DNA of 64,000 nucleotides from an uncultured Candidatus Saccharibacteria bacterium (GTDB taxonomy: Bacteria; Patescibacteriota; Andersenbacteria; UBA10190), in the NCBI GenBank assembly GCA_964371255.1, contig CAYJKV010000001.1, positions 32,573 through 96,572 of the forward strand, written 5' to 3'. Made by a program: the position numbers and the translations under genes. Below the pieces are notes generated by a model. The model was given only the letters and a program-made list of their open reading frames with translations, ran no database searches and was not told the DNA's origin. Positions 23,873-32,114 of the stretch are shown one piece after another; within the stretch, counting starts at the first letter, position 1, and every line of letters begins with the position of its first letter.

Positions 23873-24613
23873 TCAAGGACTATCAGTAGAAGTGGAAAAT
23901 AGAATATTCAGTGGGTTTAGCCAGGCGGACAAGTCGGCCTGTTTGGGAACATACCCGCGCAGGTCAAGTTTAGTGCCAACAAGAATAGCGAGATGTAAGT
24001 GTTTTCTCTCGCCATCTGTGGCGTCGCTCTTATCCTGTCCCAGGTAACCGATGGTTTCACCAGCAGCGACGGGATTATTTTCTTTAATTAACCGCGCCGG
24101 ATCAAGATGGCCATAGATACCGAGATGCGGCTGGTTGTTGATGATATGTTCAATAACTACCACACCACCATAGCCGTTAGAGCGTCGAGCGGACCGGACT
24201 GTGCCAGCGGTAATGGATCTGACTGGTACATCGGCGGTGATATCCGTGTACTCGGCATCGGCGCCAGTGTGATAACCAGTAAATCTCTCCGGCTGAACAG
24301 GTGAGTTTTTGGGATCAATATAAATCCCAAAAGGTTTTTTGGTGACACGCCGCACAAAGTTTTCGACTGGTTCAACGAAAGATTCCGATGGCAGGGCGGG
24401 AGCAGGGGAGATGGATGACGGGGAAGGTGTGTTGAGAAGGGGTGAAGACGGTGAAAAGGGAGATTGGCTTAGGTAAGGTTCAGACGGGGGAAAAGAGTTT
24501 TCAGTAGTGGCTATGAATTCCGGGGCGTTTTGTTTCGGCCAGATAAGGAAGGCGCTGGCAAGGACTAGAATGCCAATGATGGCAAGGAGGGGAGAGGCTT
24601 TGAATAGGGGCAT
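23873..24613 (-). CDS. M23 (LytM) family metallopeptidase with an N-terminal anchor and a Pro/Ser-rich linker.
   Basis: HTGADAEY...D ... HLHLAI (HxxxD / HxH M23 motifs). Confidence 0.75.
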   Translation of the reverse strand: MPLFKASPLLAIIGILVLASAFLIWPKQNAPEFIATTENSFPPSEPYLSQSPFSPSSPLLNTPSPSSISPAPALPSESFVEPVENFVRRVTKKPFGIYIDPKNSPVQPERFTGYHTGADAEYTDITADVPVRSITAGTVRSARRSNGYGGVVVIEHIINNQPHLGIYGHLDPARLIKENNPVAAGETIGYLGQDKSDATDGERKHLHLAILVGTKLDLRGYVPKQADLSAWLNPLNILFSTSTDSP

Positions 24614-24774
24614 AGATAGTTAATTAATACTATCAGAATACAGTTAATCTCTTAAAGTTGTTTCATGATGTTCTCCAGGGGCCTAATACTTATTGTTTAA
24701 AATCTTTTTCATTAAATTATGATTTGAAAGTTATGCAATATTATTGACAGTAGAAAACGTGGTTGGTAAGCTTG

Positions 24775-24960
24775 GTTTACTGTTAGTCAGCGATGGCTGA
24801 CGAGACAAGAATGAATTTTAAAAATTTGTCATTAGTTTGGTGAAGCGGGTGTAAATCCCGCGCTGTGCCGCAACGGTGTTCCAGCCAAAAAGCTGGTCAG
24901 TCCGATCCTAAATTAATGGAGAGAGTGCTTCCGAGCAGGAGTTAAGAGTGATCAGTAAGA
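24775..24960 (+). promoter_or_regulatory. Cobalamin (B12) riboswitch aptamer.
   Basis: Core GGTGAAGCGGGTGTAAATCCCGCGCTGTGCCGCAACGGTG matches the conserved GGTG..AA.TCC...GC.G.CCCGCaAC.GT cobalamin core. Followed by agccaaaaagctgg and a terminator. Downstream genes are B12-related. Confidence 0.6.
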
Positions 24961-24961
24961 C

Positions 24962-24991
24962 TTCCAGGCTCGGTTAGCAGGAAGTTTTTTT
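24962..24991 (+). terminator. Riboswitch expression-platform terminator (acttcc/ggaagt stem followed by T7).
   Basis: Hairpin plus ttttttt immediately before the DUF4430 gene start. Confidence 0.45.
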
Positions 24992-24992
24992 A

Positions 24993-25547
24993 TTGACTAA
25001 TGATATGAAGATTGAAGTATTGAGTAAGCTACTTAAGGCCAAGACCGAATTGATCATCTTGGCGATATTGGTCCCGCTAGTGTTAACGCTGGGCGTGATA
25101 TTGGCGAAGTGGTCTACGTGGCAGGAGATAGGTGTGCCGGCACCGTCGACGACATCGCCAGGGTTAGAAGAAAATCAAGGGAGCGCGGCGGTGGAGAAAA
25201 CAATAACGTCGATGGAGTCGGAGGTAGCCAAGCAGGCAGTCTCTTTGGCAGTGGAAAACGGCGCGGACAAGACCACGGTACTGGTGCCGGTGGCGGGAAC
25301 CGCGTCGGTGGCAGAGGTGCTGCAGACAGCAGTGGCGGAGAACAAAATAACGATGGAGTATAAAGATTATGGCGCGGCGATGGGCATATTGATTGAATCG
25401 ATAAATAATATTGCGAACAATAGCGGACAGAAACGGTATTGGTACTTATACGTGAATGGTCAGCTATCACCGGTGGGAGCAAGCCAAGCACAAGTTGAAG
25501 CTGGTGATGTCATAACCTGGAAGTATGAAGAGGAGAAAGATGAGTAA
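24993..25547 (+). CDS. DUF4430-domain protein (transcobalamin beta-domain-like) with an N-terminal membrane anchor. Probable start is the ATG at 25005.
   Basis: C-terminal GQKRYWYLYVNGQLSPVGASQAQVEAGDVITWKY matches the DUF4430 signature (W.Y.VNG...G.....GD.I.W.Y). Confidence 0.7.
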   Translation: MTNDMKIEVLSKLLKAKTELIILAILVPLVLTLGVILAKWSTWQEIGVPAPSTTSPGLEENQGSAAVEKTITSMESEVAKQAVSLAVENGADKTTVLVPVAGTASVAEVLQTAVAENKITMEYKDYGAAMGILIESINNIANNSGQKRYWYLYVNGQLSPVGASQAQVEAGDVITWKYEEEKDE

Positions 25548-27594
25548 AAACAAGAAAAAATGGCTGGGAAGCGTTGGGGCGATAACGTTAATAGTGGGTT
25601 TTGGTTTGCTAGCTGGCCAGATGGTGGCAGGGGCGACAGAGGGGACCAAAGTTCAGATGAGGGTGGAAGGGCAGACAGAACGCTTGTTTGAAGGAGAAGT
25701 GACGATCGGAGATTGCATTGCACAGGATGATGGTGGCACGGAACATTCGTTGTCGGGGGTGGCACTATGCGGGTTGGTTGACATGGCAAATAGCGAATCC
25801 ATGGCGCTTAGTTTGCAGGACTTTGGCTTTGGATTATTTGTGGCTGGCATAGGCAGTGATATCACACCGGCGGATTGGTCAAGAAGCTGGTCATTTTGGG
25901 TTAATGAGGAACCAGCCGCGGTCGGGGCAGATACGTACCCAGTCATGGAGGGGGATGAGATATTATTCGCTTTCAGCGGATACCCGACTGTACCTTTGCG
26001 GGTAACTGCGCCGGAGCAGGTGGCGGCAGGCGTGCCGTTTACGGTGGCCGTCGAGAAAAAAATCGGTGAGTATGATGCCAACTATAATTGGCTGGGACAG
26101 TGGGTGCCGGCTAGCACGATCCGGTTATGGATAGGTGATAATGAAGCGGTAATTGATGAAGAAGGGAAAGCGACGGTGAAGATAGATAGTCCGGGAATAG
26201 TTGATTTATGGGCGGAAGGTGACGGTTTAGTAAGAAGCGCGCGCCGGCCAGTTATAGTGGAAGAGGGGCAAGAAACAGTAGGGCCGACAAATACGCCTGC
26301 ACCGACAATTTCTCCACTAGTATCTCCGATAGTAAGTCCGACGATAAGTCCGACACCCTCTAGTAGTGTGACACCAGAGCCGGTGATAACGGTAGCGCCG
26401 CCCAGTCCGACGCCAGCAGGCGGTAAGCTGCTGATTGACGAAGAACGAAAGAGAGCGGCGAGGGCAGCAATTAACTATCTAAGCAGCCAGCAGGGCGCGG
26501 ATGGAAAAATTGAAGGTGATCTGGTAACAGCTTGGAGCGCGATCGCTTTTGCCGCAGATGGACAGCGGGGAGACACTGTTAAAGGGCCAGGCGGGTCTTT
26601 GTGGGCTGGATTAGCGGCGGCCGAATTATCCAGTGCCACCGATATCGAAAGACAGATAATGGCGGTGGCAGCGACCGGTGGCAATCCGCGAGATTGGCAA
26701 GGCAGAAATCTGGTTCAGGAACTGAGGGGGTATTTCATTGGAGGACAGGTAGGAGAGGTGACTATTATTAACGATGATATTTTTGGAGTGTTAGCCTGGT
26801 TGGCGGCTGGTGAACCGGTTGACTCGAGTGAAGTAGAGCAGACAATAAGAACGGTTATAGCCAATCGGGACGATAATGGAGCGTGGGGGTCCATTGATTT
26901 GACGGCAGCGGCGGTGCAAGGTTTACGGGAATACGCGAAGCGAGGCGGATTGATCAACGTAAATCCAGTGATTGAAGAAGCACGGTCATATTTGCGAAAC
27001 CACCAGGACGAATACGGGGGATGGGGGAAAAACTTAGCTAGTACAGCCTGGGGCATACAAGCTGTCGTGTCATTAGGAGAGAACCCGGCAGAGTGGCCAA
27101 ATCCGGAGGGAAAAACAGGCTGGCAAGCGTTGGCACGATACCAAAATGATAACGGTGGTTTTGGCTGGCAAGCGAATCAAGATGTCTCCAGCTTTATGAC
27201 GGCTTACGCGGTGCCGGCTCTGTTAGGGAAGTCATGGCCCATAACACCGGAGCAGGCGATAGAAAGTGAGACAAGCCTTGATGAAACAACAGAAGTAGGA
27301 TTGAAGGCGGTCCCCACAACCGCAATCGTCACTGCTTTGCCACTTAATCCAATGGTGGCTGGGATTCAAGCAGGAGACGAAGGTGAAATAAGCGGGCCAG
27401 GCGAAGTAGGTACGAGGGAAGAAACAGTTCAAGCTGACAGTAGCGCACAGACCGAGCGTGGGCCTGGCGACAGGGAGGTTGTGAATAAATTTATTCAACC
27501 AAATGAGCGTGATTGGCAATTCGTTTTTTCCGTGTTCAGTCTGGCTAATATTGGGATTGGTGTTACAGTAGCTAGATTGTTTATAAAGATATGA
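25525..27594 (+). CDS. Surface-anchored multidomain protein: signal/TM, DUF4430-like domain, P/S/T linker, prenyltransferase/squalene-cyclase-like alpha/alpha-toroid repeats, C-terminal TM anchor.
   Basis: WSFWVNEEPAAVGADTYPVMEGDEILFAF (DUF4430-like). Repeats DDNGAWGS, DEYGGWGK, NDNGGFGW (QW/terpenoid-cyclase-type). Linker PTISPLVSPIVSPTISPTPS. C-terminal hydrophobic FVFSVFSLANIGIGVTVARLFI. Confidence 0.6.
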   Translation: MKRRKMSKNKKKWLGSVGAITLIVGFGLLAGQMVAGATEGTKVQMRVEGQTERLFEGEVTIGDCIAQDDGGTEHSLSGVALCGLVDMANSESMALSLQDFGFGLFVAGIGSDITPADWSRSWSFWVNEEPAAVGADTYPVMEGDEILFAFSGYPTVPLRVTAPEQVAAGVPFTVAVEKKIGEYDANYNWLGQWVPASTIRLWIGDNEAVIDEEGKATVKIDSPGIVDLWAEGDGLVRSARRPVIVEEGQETVGPTNTPAPTISPLVSPIVSPTISPTPSSSVTPEPVITVAPPSPTPAGGKLLIDEERKRAARAAINYLSSQQGADGKIEGDLVTAWSAIAFAADGQRGDTVKGPGGSLWAGLAAAELSSATDIERQIMAVAATGGNPRDWQGRNLVQELRGYFIGGQVGEVTIINDDIFGVLAWLAAGEPVDSSEVEQTIRTVIANRDDNGAWGSIDLTAAAVQGLREYAKRGGLINVNPVIEEARSYLRNHQDEYGGWGKNLASTAWGIQAVVSLGENPAEWPNPEGKTGWQALARYQNDNGGFGWQANQDVSSFMTAYAVPALLGKSWPITPEQAIESETSLDETTEVGLKAVPTTAIVTALPLNPMVAGIQAGDEGEISGPGEVGTREETVQADSSAQTERGPGDREVVNKFIQPNERDWQFVFSVFSLANIGIGVTVARLFIKI

Positions 27595-28202
27595 CGAGAT
27601 CGCAAACAGAAAAAATAATATGGTCGGTGTGTTTGATAGTAGTGGTTTTAATGATTAGGACTAGCGATCATATGCCCAACGTGGTGCCGATCGCAGCGAT
27701 CGCTTTATGGGCAGGGGCTGTTTGGCCGATGCCGGGAGCGATGGTCGTCCCATTGGTTGCGATGTTGCTGGCCGATATGGTTATCGGCCTGGCCAGCTGG
27801 CCGGTCATGTTAGCGGTTTATCTGTCATACGGTCTGATTGCCGGGATGGGCCGGTGGGTGAAGGAACGGTTTAGGCCGGCGAAAATTGTCGGCACGGCCA
27901 TGTTGGGGGCCACGGTATTTTATTTGATAACGAATGCGGCCGTGTGGTGGTTTGACGGCTTGTATCCGCGCACGATGACTGGTTTGATCCTGTCTTATTT
28001 TTACGCTTTGCCATTCTATCGCAGTACGTTACTAGGCGATATTGTTTATACTGGCAGTTTGTTTGTAGTGTGGCATAGTTGGCCGGCGGCAGTTGGTTGG
28101 GTGACCAAAAAGCTAACAGGCAAGACGCAGTTCGAGAGTTTGGCGCTCAAGACAGACATGAAACTGCAGAAGGCAGAAATAAGGAGAGAAAAGGTTAATT
28201 AA
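27591..28202 (+). CDS. Polytopic membrane protein (6 TM, 203 aa); possible ECF-type S component for vitamin uptake. Translationally coupled to the preceding gene.
   Basis: Hydrophobic profile and size typical of ECF S components. Start overlaps the upstream stop. Position within the B12 cluster. Confidence 0.4.
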   Translation: MTRSQTEKIIWSVCLIVVVLMIRTSDHMPNVVPIAAIALWAGAVWPMPGAMVVPLVAMLLADMVIGLASWPVMLAVYLSYGLIAGMGRWVKERFRPAKIVGTAMLGATVFYLITNAAVWWFDGLYPRTMTGLILSYFYALPFYRSTLLGDIVYTGSLFVVWHSWPAAVGWVTKKLTGKTQFESLALKTDMKLQKAEIRREKVN

Positions 28203-28207
28203 TTATA

Positions 28208-28237
28208 TTGACGGTGACTAAAGCGGATTGGTATACT
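28208..28237 (+). promoter_or_regulatory. Sigma-70-type promoter: TTGACG, 18-nt spacer, TATACT, upstream of nrdJ.
   Basis: Near-consensus hexamers read directly. Confidence 0.45.
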
Positions 28238-28323
28238 GGTTTTACTTTTCAAATCGAACGGAAAAATAGTTCGCTTTGGCTAATCCTTTAATAAAACGTT
28301 TTCCACGCGTTTCCATTTAAGGG

Positions 28324-30654
28324 TTGGGTTATTTTGTAACGTTTACCCTTAATAAAAATAAAAACATGAACAGCTATTTCAACATAACGAGAGTGGATCT
28401 ACAAAATTTAGCTAAGATTAAAAAACGAGACGGACAGGTAGCGCCGTTTAATTTTGCCAAGATTTCGCAGGCGGTACTGAAGGCCATGACAACTACTGGC
28501 GAGGGGAATGAAAAAGACGCTGATTTAGTGGCGCGGAAAGTGGTTCGGGATTTACTTAAATTACGAAGAGCCAGTCAGGAAAAAAGTTTTCTGCCCAATG
28601 TGGAAATGGTGCAGGATTTAGTGGAAGAAGAGCTGATGTTGTTAGATTTCGTGAAGACCGCCAAGTCATATATTTTATACCGAGAAAAAAGGGCGTCACT
28701 GCGGGCGGAAGTGGGAGAAGTGCCGGAAGACGTAAGGGAGTTAGTAGCAGAAAGCAAAAAATATTTTAGAAATTCACTGGCCGAGTTTGTTTACTGTCGG
28801 ACCTACGCGCGCTGGATTGATAAGGAAGGACGGCGCGAAACATGGATTGAAACGGTGCAGCGGTTTATTGACTATATGAAGGATAATTTAGGCAAGAAGC
28901 TGACAGAGAACGAGTACGAAGAAGTCCGGCAGGCAATTTTAAAGCATGAAGCAATGCCGTCGATGCGACTGATGCAATTTTCCGGCCCGGCAGCGAAGGC
29001 GACCAATGTGTGCGCCTATAATTGCTCTTATATTGCCCCGTCGAAAGTGCGGGATTTTTCCGAGATTATGTATGTGTTAATGTGCGGGGCCGGTGCCGGC
29101 TATTCAGTGGAAAGCCAGAACATCCAAGCGTTGCCGCAAATCAAGCATCAGTCGGGTAAGAAAGCGGCTAGCCAAGTGGTGGATGACAGTAAAGAGGGTT
29201 GGGCCAATGCCTTGGAGCTGGGTATGAATACCTGGTTCAAAGGAGAGGATATAGAGTTTGATTTGTCCAAACTGCGACCAGCGGGGGCTCGTTTGAAGAC
29301 GATGGGCGGCAAAAGCTCGGGACCAGAGCCGCTCCGGCAAGTATTGGAGTTCGCACGCGATAAGATATTAGCCAAGCAAGGTAAGCGATTATCTAATTTG
29401 GACGCCCATGATATTATTTGCAAAATTGGCGAGTGCGTAGTCGCCGGCGGGGTAAGGCGGAGCGCATTAATATCCCTATCAGATTTGGACGATATTGAAA
29501 TGAGAGACGCCAAGAAAGGCCAGTTCTTTATGACCGAGCCGCAACGCAGCATGGCTAATAATTCGGCGGTGTATAATGAGAAACCGACAGCGGAACAATT
29601 TTTTGATGAATGGATCGCTTTGATGAAGAGCGGATCAGGTGAGCGAGGCATTTTTAATCGCGGTTGTCTTAGCAGTACGTTGCCCAAACGCCGGATTGAT
29701 TTATTAAGGAAGAAAAAATGGCCGCAGTGGGGAACCAATCCGTGCGGCGAAATTATATTGCGATCCAAACAGTTCTGTAATTTATCGGAAGTGGTAGCGA
29801 GGGCGGAAGATACGGAAGAGACGCTAATGCGAAAAGCTCGGATCGCCGCGATCTTGGGCACTTATCAGTCGACGCTGACTAACTTTCCTTACTTGTCGAG
29901 CGAATGGAGAAAGAATTGTGAAGAAGAACGATTGTTAGGCGTTTCGATTACCGGTCAGTGGGATTGTCCGAAGGTGCGAGAAGCGGAAATGTTGAACAAG
30001 ATCAGGGAAGAGGTGTTAAAAGTAAATCGAAAGTATGCTAAGCGGTTTGGAATTAATGCATCATCGTGCGCGACTTGCGTGAAGCCGTCCGGGAACGTAT
30101 CGCAGATGACGGATTGTGCGTCCGGTATGCATCCCAGACATGCCAAGTATTATATCCGACGGGTGCGGGTATCAGCGACCGATGCGCTGTTTAAGATGTT
30201 GCGTGACCAGGGAGTGCCATATCATCCTGAGGTGGGCCAGTCATTAGAGGACGCGACTACCTACGTATTGGAATTTCCGGTCAAAGCGCCAGCGGGAGCT
30301 ATCCTCAAGAATGACCTGACCGCGTTGGAGCAATTGGAGCATTGGAAAAAGGTAAAAATAAACTATACAGAGCATAATCCTTCAGTGACAGTGTCGGTGG
30401 GTAATGACGAGTGGGTAGCCGTGGCAAATTGGCTTTATGAAAATTGGGAGATTGCCGGCGGATTATCTTTCTTGCCTCGGTCAGATCATGTGTATCAATT
30501 AGCGCCTTATGAAGAAATTGATGAAAAGAGATACGAGGAACAAGTGAAGCGACTAGGTCAGATTGACTATTCCAAATTAGTTTCTTATGAACGTGAGGAT
30601 GAGCTAGATGTTAAGACGGAACTGGCTTGCGTATCGGGCACGTGTGAAATTTAG
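28324..30654 (+). CDS. nrdJ: Adenosylcobalamin-dependent (class II) ribonucleotide reductase with an N-terminal ATP-cone. Likely start is the internal Met (MNSYFNIT).
   Basis: ATP-cone N-terminus; active-site TNPCGEI (class II PCGE motif); 776 aa monomeric type. Confidence 0.85.
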   Translation: MGYFVTFTLNKNKNMNSYFNITRVDLQNLAKIKKRDGQVAPFNFAKISQAVLKAMTTTGEGNEKDADLVARKVVRDLLKLRRASQEKSFLPNVEMVQDLVEEELMLLDFVKTAKSYILYREKRASLRAEVGEVPEDVRELVAESKKYFRNSLAEFVYCRTYARWIDKEGRRETWIETVQRFIDYMKDNLGKKLTENEYEEVRQAILKHEAMPSMRLMQFSGPAAKATNVCAYNCSYIAPSKVRDFSEIMYVLMCGAGAGYSVESQNIQALPQIKHQSGKKAASQVVDDSKEGWANALELGMNTWFKGEDIEFDLSKLRPAGARLKTMGGKSSGPEPLRQVLEFARDKILAKQGKRLSNLDAHDIICKIGECVVAGGVRRSALISLSDLDDIEMRDAKKGQFFMTEPQRSMANNSAVYNEKPTAEQFFDEWIALMKSGSGERGIFNRGCLSSTLPKRRIDLLRKKKWPQWGTNPCGEIILRSKQFCNLSEVVARAEDTEETLMRKARIAAILGTYQSTLTNFPYLSSEWRKNCEEERLLGVSITGQWDCPKVREAEMLNKIREEVLKVNRKYAKRFGINASSCATCVKPSGNVSQMTDCASGMHPRHAKYYIRRVRVSATDALFKMLRDQGVPYHPEVGQSLEDATTYVLEFPVKAPAGAILKNDLTALEQLEHWKKVKINYTEHNPSVTVSVGNDEWVAVANWLYENWEIAGGLSFLPRSDHVYQLAPYEEIDEKRYEEQVKRLGQIDYSKLVSYEREDELDVKTELACVSGTCEI

Positions 30655-30656
30655 CA

Positions 30657-31190
30657 ATGAGCGTCTTGTACACTGGCCGCGGTGATGACGGTACCACGAC
30701 TTTGTACGGAGGGCCGAAGCGTCTGGGTAAGGACTCCGATGTGATTGAAGCGTTGGGCAGTGTTGATGAGATAAATTCCTTTATTGGTTGGTGTCGGACG
30801 CAGATGGAAGAGACGGCATTGCAAAAAATATTGGAAGATGCCCAACAAGTATTGTTTATTCTACAAGCTGAAATAGCGGGAGCGAACAAAGCGGTGCGCC
30901 GGGAAGATGTGCAGCGGATGGAGACAGTAATAAAGAAACTTAGCGCGGAATTGCCGTCAATCAAAGGGTTTGTGCTAGCCGGAGAGACGGCAGCCGCAGC
31001 TATGCTAGATGTGGCGCGGACCATCGCGCGGCGGGCAGAACGGGTGATAAATAAAGGGATGAAGAAAAAAGAACTGATAGTGGGGGAAGGAGCCTTGGCG
31101 TATTTGAACCGTCTATCTAGCCTGCTCTATGTCTTGGCGAGGGTACAAAATTTCCGGAATAACAAAATAGAAAAAACGCCCAAGTATTGA
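30657..31190 (+). CDS. ATP:cob(I)alamin adenosyltransferase, PduO type.
   Basis: N-terminal YTGRGDDGTTTLYGG...R signature; 177 aa. Start 3 nt after the nrdJ stop. Confidence 0.85.
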   Translation: MSVLYTGRGDDGTTTLYGGPKRLGKDSDVIEALGSVDEINSFIGWCRTQMEETALQKILEDAQQVLFILQAEIAGANKAVRREDVQRMETVIKKLSAELPSIKGFVLAGETAAAAMLDVARTIARRAERVINKGMKKKELIVGEGALAYLNRLSSLLYVLARVQNFRNNKIEKTPKY

Positions 31191-31235
31191 CTACTAAATC
31201 ATGTGGTACTCAAATAGACTTTATTAATGACCAGG

Positions 31236-31868
31236 TTAGTGTTCGTCGTATTCGAGTGAAAAATCCAAAGCTTCTTCAATCGCTCCCTTAAGTTGGGAAG
31301 GATAGTCGATGATCGCTTGCGGATGACCTGGTTGAAGCAACTGTTCGTCGTGATAACCCCAAGTAACACCAATACACGGGATGCGAACACGTTTGGCTTC
31401 CATGATATCGCCCAGAGTATCCGTGATAAAAACACACTCGGTCGGCTGAACCTGATAGTGTTGCAGGAGGAGCGAGAATTTATCGGATTTTAGATTGGGA
31501 ATATCATTAGAAAAGATCGCACTAAAATGACGAGTGAGATTATGCTGTTGCAGGTACTGTTTAATGGGGGGGCTGGTAGTGGAAGAGACCAGGATGGTAG
31601 TGAAATTAGCGCCGATAAACTCAAGGGCATCGACGATGCCGGGAACGATAGGCTGGTCGACAATGCCTTGCGCATAGGCGGTAAAGAAATCAAAACCGGC
31701 GTTGGAAAAAGATTGTAACAGCTGGGCCCGAGATTTATCACGGGCAAATCTTTGTCGGAATAATTGTTCGGATTCGCCGGGATTTATCTGTGAGACTATG
31801 TTGAAGCACAGCTGAAACGAATCGACAATGACACCATCAAAGTCAATTAAGACAAATTCTGACTGCAT
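31236..31868 (-). CDS. HAD-superfamily hydrolase (phosphatase).
   Basis: Motif I LIDFDGVIVDS; 210 aa. Confidence 0.7.
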   Translation of the reverse strand: MQSEFVLIDFDGVIVDSFQLCFNIVSQINPGESEQLFRQRFARDKSRAQLLQSFSNAGFDFFTAYAQGIVDQPIVPGIVDALEFIGANFTTILVSSTTSPPIKQYLQQHNLTRHFSAIFSNDIPNLKSDKFSLLLQHYQVQPTECVFITDTLGDIMEAKRVRIPCIGVTWGYHDEQLLQPGHPQAIIDYPSQLKGAIEEALDFSLEYDEH

Positions 31869-31988: not shown

Positions 31989-32114
31989 TTACGCAGTTGT
32001 CTCTGCTTCATCACCTTCCACTGGAGTCTCTTCGGCTGGAACAGCCGGGGTCTCTTCTGGAGTCTCTTCGGCTGGAACAGCCGGGGTTTCTTCTGGCATT
32101 GTTTCATCGTCCAT
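31989..32114 (-). CDS. Unannotated small acidic repeat peptide (41 aa): MDDETMPEETPAVPAEETPEETPAVPAEETPVEGDEAETTA.
   Basis: ATG preceded by GAGGAGGTGATC, an SD at ideal spacing. Contains an in-frame 36-nt tandem duplication. Followed by the hairpin. Confidence 0.45.
   Translation of the reverse strand: MDDETMPEETPAVPAEETPEETPAVPAEETPVEGDEAETTA
32023..32094. repeat. 36-nt direct tandem repeat (2 copies, 1 mismatch) inside the small acidic ORF.
   Basis: ggagtctcttcggctggaacagccggggt(c/t)tcttct occurs twice consecutively. Confidence 0.8.

Follow-up and report, generated by a model that had tools for sequence, protein, structure and literature searches.

A cobalamin-clan aptamer was located directly upstream of a DUF4430-first gene cluster in the 64-kb window (the whole 64,000-nt stretch of DNA analysed here) of an uncultured, ultra-small Andersenbacteria-like Patescibacterium. 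In our reading, to which we assign a probability of roughly 0.77, this leader would be an AdoCbl-class riboswitch operating as a repressing transcriptional switch, for which we infer the ligand, the TSS, the termination event and the role of the regulated genes in transport.

The element lies in a 391-nt intergenic gap (24613 to 25005). The upstream gene, encoding an M23 peptidase, is in divergent orientation, so that the gap represents a promoter-plus-leader region. The leader transcript would span approximately 24779–25004, in close agreement with the span of 24775–24991 proposed in the initial annotation, and the core quoted there, GGTGAAGCGGGTGTAAATCCCGCGCTGTGCCGCAACGGTG, was located at 24839–24878. 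The short hairpin and T7 run described as following this core were also found (hairpin 24957–24988, T7 24985–24991). A single nucleotide separates the T7 run from a mechanical TTG ORF start (24993), and 13 nt separate it from the in-frame ATG (25005), a distance close to the ~14 nt from the first ORF originally given and typical of the 0–20 nt separating U tract and start codon in relatives. The features of the promoter, aptamer and P13 hairpin are listed below.

24744–24772 (+), predicted leader promoter: -35 TTGACA at 24744–24749, a 17-nt spacer and the extended -10 TGGTAAGCT at 24764–24772
24781–24807 (+), 5'-proximal stem-loop: core GUCAGC-GAUG-GCUGAC at 24786–24801, present in the leader MFE
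24829–24919 (+), cobalamin aptamer core, overall: from the RF01482 alignment, with pairs assigned by folding
24829–24840 with 24908–24919 (+), P1/P2 of the aptamer core
24845–24861 (+), P4 of the aptamer core, with loop UGUAAAU
24864–24872 (+), P5/L5 of the aptamer core, with L5 UGCCG at 24866–24870
24874–24876 with 24902–24904 (+), P6 of the aptamer core
24881–24896 (+), P6 extension hairpin of the aptamer core
24899–24907 (+), B12-box-like strand of the aptamer core, AGUCCGAUC
24927–24942 (+), P13 hairpin GCUUC-CGAGCA-GGAGU, which aligns with the 3' hairpin of RF01482
24932–24937 (+), L13 loop, kissing partner of L5

Scanning the whole window against Rfam at gathering thresholds returned no match at all. 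With permissive thresholds, the only Rfam match at E ≤ 0.05 anywhere in the 64 kb was to RF01482 (AdoCbl), covering 24814–24945 and the full model (1–149) at 41.2 bits (E = 3.1e-6 locally; E = 4e-4 for the whole window, both strands and 4227 families). Scores for RF00174 and RF01689 were lower than that for RF01482, and the aptamer fell below the gathering score in all three cobalamin-clan families (50 bits for RF01482, 31.5 for RF00174 and 36.5 for RF01689), the gathering score being an operational threshold and not itself a biological property. The covariance test suggested in the initial annotation, which named RF00174, thus ended below the gathering score, a result listed there as refuting, and the best family was RF01482 (41.2 vs 50 bits). 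The assignment to the cobalamin clan made there was instead upheld by E-value, synteny and covariation.

The window aptamer shares with RF01482 (clan CL00101, together with RF00174 Cobalamin and RF01689 AdoCbl-II) a long P1/P2, a P4 with a 7-nt loop, the GCCACUG-like L5/P6 segment GCCGCAACGG, the B12-box-like strand, a simple P6 extension and the 3' P13 hairpin. It differs from this family in that its P4 is unbulged, its L13 is very short at 6 nt and outer P1 contains non-canonical pairs. Such lineage divergence accounts for the low RF01482 score. The segment 24829–24942 is a cobalamin-clan aptamer. Its ligand would be a corrinoid, most plausibly AdoCbl, given the best-matching family and the AdoCbl-related genes downstream.

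To place this leader among its relatives, we used a comparison set of loci encoding homologues of the first (DUF4430) protein, whose nearest named relative was Candidatus Andersenbacteria (Patescibacteria/CPR). Eight of these loci (L001–L008) came from the same species and were near-identical, hence of no use for covariation, and L012 was excluded from the alignment as the 5' half of its aptamer was missing or rearranged. A cobalamin-clan match occurred directly before the DUF4430 gene in every relative with upstream sequence, and over 20 relatives among the Patescibacteria carried an aptamer ahead of this same cluster, with the DUF4430 gene first. Half of the related leaders scored (10/20) reached a gathering score: L013, L016, L021, L102 and L105 for RF01482, L014 and L179 for RF00174, and L095, L101 and L175 for RF01689. 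The 10 sub-threshold leaders, which resembled the window in this respect, comprised all of the Andersenbacteria-like clade together with the leaders closest to it.

Approximately 80% of leader positions were invariant among the closest relatives, whereas the adjacent protein was only 55–80% identical. The canonical architecture (P1/P2, P4, P5, P6, P6 extension, P13 and the L5–L13 pseudoknot) was scored on an alignment of 18 non-redundant leaders, in which 89.3% of cells were paired, compared to 34–51% when the partners were slid. Changes on both sides of a pair (compensatory) were present in 24/35 pairs, and the observed values were reached by none of 500 shuffles. P4, P5 and P6 were 100% paired across the 18 leaders. 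Invariant or near-invariant alignment columns included GGU..A..CC, CUGUGCCGCAACGGU and the B12-box-like strand. An alternative helix returned by RNAalifold (CUGUG/CAACGG), which would replace P5 and P6, was rejected; canonical P6 is backed by a G-C to U-A change in L013.

A leader conserved to this degree, with covarying helices, beside proteins of 55–80% identity indicates that the aptamer is real and under selection. The same data bear on whether the element only resembles an aptamer, by chance or through decay, and regulates nothing, as its failure to reach the gathering score of any cobalamin-clan model might imply. Set against this are the window-wide E-value, the invariant leader positions, the covarying helices and the fact that the element always precedes B12-related genes. 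We give this explanation next to no weight and regard it as effectively refuted by the comparative data.

The P13 hairpin carries the motif YUCC-GAGCA-GGAR, which was common to all lineages, and the sequences 3' of P13 varied by lineage. Its loop would form a kissing interaction with L5 through U24866–A24937, G24867–C24936, C24868–G24935, C24869–G24933 and G24870–C24932, with A24934 bulged. This kissing loop (UGCCG with CG(A)GCA) was paired in all 18 aligned leaders, and all five pairs form in 21/23 leaders, L012 and L098 having one mismatch each. In L013, L015 and L016, the L5 variants AUCCG and GUCCG were matched by an L13 of CGAGAU. As this covariation comes essentially from that one lineage, we take it as supportive rather than conclusive. 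A bulged kissing loop and an L5 near the consensus UCCCG are likewise features of characterised corrinoid riboswitches (PMC10327014). A second hairpin, 'hairpin B', whose loop contains GGC and CGG, was considered as the true P13 and rejected, the YUCC-GAGCA-GGAR hairpin being conserved everywhere and covarying with L5.

Transcription of the leader would begin near 24779. The -35 and extended -10 of the predicted promoter were conserved in L009, L172, L175, L176 and L177. A generic promoter scan did not list this promoter because its TAAGCT fits only 3/6 positions of TATAAT; it does fit TGnTAnnnT, the usual promoter form of this genome. The 5'-proximal stem-loop was kept in relatives with differing sequences via compensatory changes (the alignment being judged by eye), and it may serve a role such as transcript stabilisation.

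Downstream of P13, the leader is predicted to adopt two alternative arrangements, an intrinsic terminator and an antiterminator.

24957–24991 (+), predicted intrinsic terminator, defined by folding (-12.4 kcal/mol)
24957–24965 with 24980–24988 (+), terminator lower stem: core ACUUCC/GGAAGU, extended by A-U and G-U pairs
24968–24970 with 24976–24978 (+), terminator apical stem of 3 bp
24985–24991 (+), terminator U7 tract
24926–24979 (+), antiterminator, overall: the ligand-free state
24931–24936 with 24968–24973, 24938–24941 with 24962–24965, and 24926–24929 with 24976–24979 (+), antiterminator pairings

P13 (24927–24942) and the terminator hairpin (24957–24988) are compatible: they lie 14 nt apart and share no bases. 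The antiterminator arises from complementarity between CUUCC-AG-GCUCGG (24961–24973) on the terminator side and L13 plus the P13 3' strand, CCGAGC-A-GGAG (24931–24941). A second complementarity pairs UGCU (24926–24929) with AGCA (24976–24979). For the isolated platform, the antiterminator MFE was -19.3 kcal/mol compared to -15.4 kcal/mol for P13 plus terminator; antiterminator energies ranged from -12.6 to -19.3 kcal/mol, against -3.0 kcal/mol for P13 alone. The antiterminator duplex itself (-20.6 kcal/mol, z = -4.2) was equalled by 1/2000 shuffles. [quoted passage not shown]

Folding of the full leader, a check proposed in the initial annotation, recovered the alternative states. From the inferred TSS, the antiterminator was again part of the MFE, and the ensemble gave P(antiterminator) = 0.88 and P(terminator) = 0.12, with the canonical OFF state at -61.4 kcal/mol and the ON state at -63 to -66 kcal/mol. 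These energies are nearest-neighbour predictions that contain neither pseudoknot nor ligand terms, and the states are 2–5 kcal/mol apart. As the antiterminator is the more stable, the default state would be read-through. In a slightly longer fold (241 nt, including the start region) the MFE contained the terminator; the two states are thus close in energy, as expected of a switch.

Conservation of the terminator followed the same pattern. The hairpin, its loop and the U tract were invariant in the four closest leaders (the window, L089, L009 and L091), and more distant clade members (L172, L175, L176 and L177) had a few base changes in the apical part. Conservation of the loop is explained by its having to complement L13 bases that are themselves fixed by the kissing loop. 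An equivalent hairpin and U tract occurred 0–20 nt before the start codon in the other lineages. A generic terminator scan did not call the 24957–24991 site because its loop exceeds 8 nt (a long, partly structured loop of 14 nt). Terminator-like sites were enriched elsewhere in the window, with 35 compared to 19.3 ± 4.2 in shuffles, which suggests that intrinsic termination is used in this organism. The conserved P13/antiterminator/terminator arrangement supports the terminator-type expression platform originally proposed. It goes further than the initial annotation, which had considered the choice between termination and start-site sequestration ambiguous, and indicates ligand-induced termination.

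We propose the following mechanism. With a corrinoid bound, L5 (UGCCG) would kiss L13 (CG-A-GCA) and lock the weak P13. With P13 locked, the downstream sequence would fold into the terminator, and RNA polymerase would halt on reaching the U7 tract, which ends 13 nt short of the ATG. In the ligand-free state nothing would hold P13, leaving its loop and 3' strand to pair with the terminator's 5' strand and loop. Formation of this more stable antiterminator would let transcription proceed into the genes for the DUF4430 protein, the 689-aa protein and the DUF6580 protein, and read-through would add to the expression of nrdJ-pduO, which would also have its own promoter. The energy of ligand and kissing loop, a few kcal/mol that lie outside the energy model, would favour termination. 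No SD would be required at a start codon hard by the U tract, as the genome appears to initiate without one.

This logic matches that of the repressing, transcriptional metE riboswitch of Priestia megaterium, in which an L5–L13 kissing loop stabilises P13 (PMC10327014) and the antiterminator design was proven by disruptive and compensatory mutations (PMC10327014). The two also differ. The window antiterminator additionally uses L13 loop and terminator loop bases, the P13–terminator spacer is only 14 nt, and the window element would regulate uptake genes and not metE.

The sign of regulation follows from the same geometry. In repressing corrinoid switches, P13 and the terminator coexist; in the sole known activating one, P13 overlaps the terminator (PMC10327014). 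The 14 nt between the two hairpins, together with an antiterminator that uses kissing-loop bases, point to an OFF switch. An activating switch, in which B12 induces the cluster, would suit the B12-dependent nrdJ and the adenosyltransferase gene downstream, and B12-dependent enzymes are normally not B12-repressed (PMC3848588). There is also a natural precedent in the cobT riboswitch of Alkalihalobacillus halodurans, the one natural activating corrinoid riboswitch known (PMC10327014), which resembles the window in its bulged kissing loop and terminator-based platform. Its P13, however, is itself the antiterminator and has bases in common with the terminator. An ON switch would need P13 to share bases of the terminator 5' strand in this way, whereas the window hairpins are separate and compatible, which implies the opposite sign. 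Moreover, the window antiterminator consumes L13 bases required for the kissing loop, so that ligand would disfavour it; the first three genes are of the uptake type, a class typically repressed; and nrdJ appears to have its own promoter. We therefore consider activation very improbable and retain the repressing switch as the preferred reading.

Control at the level of translation was weighed against the general features of initiation in this genome. The initial annotation had seen no SD, and this proved to be a genome-wide trait: GGAG, GAGG or AGGA occurred at -16 to -5 in 2/48 ORFs, compared to a background of 11.5% (a rough estimate from 48 long non-overlapping ORFs, with the first ATG taken as the start). 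As the lack of SD is not specific to this leader, control cannot work here by sequestering an SD. TGnTAnnnT ended ≤15 nt before the ATG in 9/48 ORFs (six of them at exactly 6 nt), where 0.75 would be expected, indicating that leaderless mRNAs are common. The start of the DUF4430 gene at ATG 25005 (MKIEVL...) was shared with relatives, and the upstream TTG was absent in L089; by this comparison, TTG 24993 is a mechanical or gene-caller alternative start.

Translational or dual control would operate if the hairpin of the ligand state (24957–24988), 16 nt before the ATG, blocked ribosome landing and the U tract were an A/U-rich loading site. It is consistent with the position of hairpin and U tract, which every lineage places 0–20 nt away from the start codon. 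In the clade of L178, L179, L180 and L010, the 3' strand of the hairpin reads AGGAGA some 12 nt before the AUG, and it is plausible that leadered genes, where a genome lacks SD sequences, depend on an A/U-rich region free of structure. With SD-like sequences so rare, however, there is nothing to sequester, and in the window neither state pairs the start codon or the 13 nt preceding it. The sole pairing of the start region, between 24997–25004 and the P1 5' strand, was missing in L089 and L009; sequestration of the start region as it appears in the 241-nt MFE (24828–24835 with 24997–25004) was rejected on these grounds. In addition, a G+C-containing stem followed by U6–U7 was present in every lineage, the signature of an intrinsic terminator. 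Translational control as such is thus quite unlikely, although a hairpin at the edge of the ribosome footprint may have a secondary translational effect alongside termination.

The genes downstream of the leader, assigned mainly by Pfam and NCBIfam, are listed below. They agree with the DUF4430, nrdJ and PduO-type genes named in the initial annotation.

25005–25547 (+), DUF4430 protein of 180 aa from the ATG, predicted to be membrane-anchored (Pfam, E = 1e-17)
25525–28202 (+), 689-aa exported/anchored protein (DUF4430 and cyclase-like repeats), then a DUF6580 multi-pass membrane protein (Pfam, NCBIfam, hydrophobic segments)
28208–28365 (+), predicted internal promoter and nrdJ leader of ~120 nt: TTGACG at 28208–28213, an 18-nt spacer, TATACT at 28232–28237, with TG upstream
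28366–30654 (+), nrdJ, RTPR-like class II RNR with ATP-cone (Pfam, NCBIfam)
30657–31190 (+), PduO-type ATP:cob(I)alamin adenosyltransferase (Pfam, NCBIfam)

Gene order in this cluster was conserved among relatives. The DUF4430 protein has an N-terminal hydrophobic anchor and a weak match (E = 0.036) to the B12-binding beta-domain of gastric intrinsic factor; sequence searches of the PDB gave no match for the DUF6580 or the 689-aa protein. From their genomic context, the DUF4430, 689-aa and DUF6580 genes are presumed to form a corrinoid capture and import module.

How far the riboswitch controls the cluster is a separate matter. The initial annotation had extended its control through nrdJ and the PduO-type gene. 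This extension finds partial support: read-through to these genes is possible, but a conserved predicted promoter and a ~120-nt leader of their own lie directly before nrdJ. TTGACG-18-TATACT was the best + strand promoter-like site in 25000–31400 (10/12 matches plus TG). The 163-nt spacer between the DUF6580 gene and nrdJ was almost invariant in L175, L176, L169 and L009 beside diverged flanking coding sequence, which marks it as an independent functional element. The nrdJ leader itself had no Rfam match and an unexceptional fold (z = -1.4), and its repeated ACGTTTnCC motif was not enriched in the window. No terminator-like site was found in the DUF6580–nrdJ spacer; the three such sites in 25000–31400 (shuffle mean 5.7) were all within coding sequence. 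With no terminator before nrdJ, read-through can still contribute. Probably, nrdJ-pduO receives both riboswitch-controlled read-through and independent transcription, and the predicted internal promoter would limit the dependence of its expression on the riboswitch.

Alternatively, all five genes, nrdJ and pduO included, could form a single riboswitch-controlled operon in which the promoter-like site before nrdJ is inactive. All five are on the same strand with no terminator-like site between the DUF6580 gene and nrdJ, and the gap between these two genes shrinks in distant relatives, to ~60 nt in L178 and to zero in L179, where nrdJ starts right after the DUF6580 stop codon. Against this, the site before nrdJ is not only the best on the + strand in this region but also has the extended -10 form of the genome, and the spacer is almost invariant while the coding sequence on either side has diverged. 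A single operon is, on balance, doubtful, and we retain two sources of nrdJ-pduO transcription as the preferred reading.

An OFF switch upstream of a B12-dependent RNR represents atypical regulatory logic (PMC3848588). In Propionibacterium acnes, B12 riboswitches before nrdAB and nrdDG repress B12-independent RNRs so that NrdJ takes over (PMC3848588). The window resembles these systems in tying a B12 riboswitch to the expression of a ribonucleotide reductase (PMC3848588) and differs in that its downstream RNR is B12-dependent and would have its own promoter. In the literature searched, B12 riboswitches were described on B12-independent RNR genes only, and none on nrdJ. One tentative extension, which we hold to be rather improbable, is that the riboswitch is the single corrinoid sensor of a self-contained scavenge-activate-use module in B12-auxotrophic, SD-less, ultra-small bacteria. 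Excess AdoCbl would then also lower nrdJ and adenosyltransferase expression by way of read-through, and the near-invariant ~120-nt nrdJ leader would be a second, undescribed element that overrides this. In relatives that, like L179, have nrdJ abutting the DUF6580 gene, such read-through would be obligatory. If true, this would be the reverse of the textbook rule, under which only B12-independent isozymes are repressed by B12 riboswitches.

The mechanism proposed here is already known, and the existing understanding of cobalamin riboswitch function is unchanged by this element; what is new is the lineage in which it occurs, a sequence that scores below threshold and the genes around it. Control of the whole operon through nrdJ-pduO is the one aspect that retains some novelty. 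The literature searched (a limited library) contained no paper dealing with natural cobalamin riboswitches from Patescibacteria, and none on DUF6580. As 10/20 leaders fell below the curated Rfam thresholds, these thresholds miss a whole clade of functional-looking Patescibacteria cobalamin riboswitches, and riboswitch censuses and predictions of B12 dependence in these uncultured bacteria are consequently likely to be underestimates. The leader also provides an example of how a riboswitch may be built in an SD-less genome, through control of termination with the U tract beside the start codon. Finally, the DUF4430 protein, the transcobalamin-like 689-aa protein and the DUF6580 protein constitute a candidate B12-scavenging set coupled to a B12-dependent RNR, which bears on cofactor acquisition by episymbiotic bacteria.

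Translation starts were surveyed at the 48 long ORFs of the whole window. A Shine-Dalgarno sequence was present at only two of these (2/48), and Shine-Dalgarno usage appears to be absent from this genome. Boxes of the -10 type TGnTAnnnT ended no more than 15 nt from the ATG at nine genes, compared to 0.75 expected, and at six genes the box ended exactly 6 nt 5' of the ATG (example ATG positions: 21077, 38903, 62576 and 20319). Leaderless genes thus appear to be abundant in the genome.

The 163-nt spacer located 5' of nrdJ, which encodes the class II B12-dependent ribonucleotide reductase (RNR), was near-invariant among relatives, and the adjoining coding sequence had diverged. No match to this spacer was found in Rfam. 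Its features were as follows.

28203-28365: spacer 5' of nrdJ
Within the spacer: promoter with an extended -10
Within the spacer: nrdJ leader of ~120 nt
28295 and 28338: direct repeats AACGTTTwCC, in the nrdJ leader
Immediately 5' of the nrdJ ATG: inverted repeat of 8 bp, TTAAGGGT/ACCCTTAA

Given that a leader this long has been conserved even though the genome is rich in leaderless genes, the nrdJ leader suggests a separate regulator for the B12-dependent RNR.

The leader of the cobalamin riboswitch also carried structure beyond the aptamer. A stem-loop at 24781-24807, a few nucleotides 3' of the inferred transcription start site and 5' of the aptamer, is not included in the Rfam model. It was retained via compensatory changes in the leaders of four Patescibacteria relatives (L009, L089, L172 and L177), and possibly serves to stabilise the transcript at its 5' end. 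In a Buchananbacteria relative (L012, 1461-1530), the 3' half of the aptamer, helix P13 and a terminator were present and the 5' half (the 5' strand of P4) was missing or rearranged; either decay of this copy or a fault in the assembly may account for this.

Among the other genes of this locus, the 689-aa protein (25525-27594) carried a signal or anchor at its N terminus and a hydrophobic anchor at its C terminus. Between these lay a DUF4430 segment, a linker rich in Pro, Ser and Thr, and squalene-cyclase/prenyltransferase-like repeats with a match to the SCO2321 family. Transcobalamin and intrinsic factor share a two-domain layout, which a putative alpha/alpha-toroid-like domain alongside the DUF4430 domain of this protein would recall. 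Further downstream, the intergenic region that separates the HAD hydrolase gene from the ZnuA gene contained two identical G+C-rich hairpins of 21 nt (CTTCGGCTGGAACAGCCGGGG; 32030-32050 and 32066-32086), 36 nt from one another.

The DUF6580 gene was followed directly or almost directly by nrdJ in a more distant clade, which includes one member labelled Saccharibacteria (L179, 3860-3940; L178, 3600-3735), and the 3'-terminal part of the DUF6580 coding sequence contained a -10-like motif, TGGTAYACT. Owing to this arrangement, nrdJ may be coupled to the riboswitch to different extents in different lineages.
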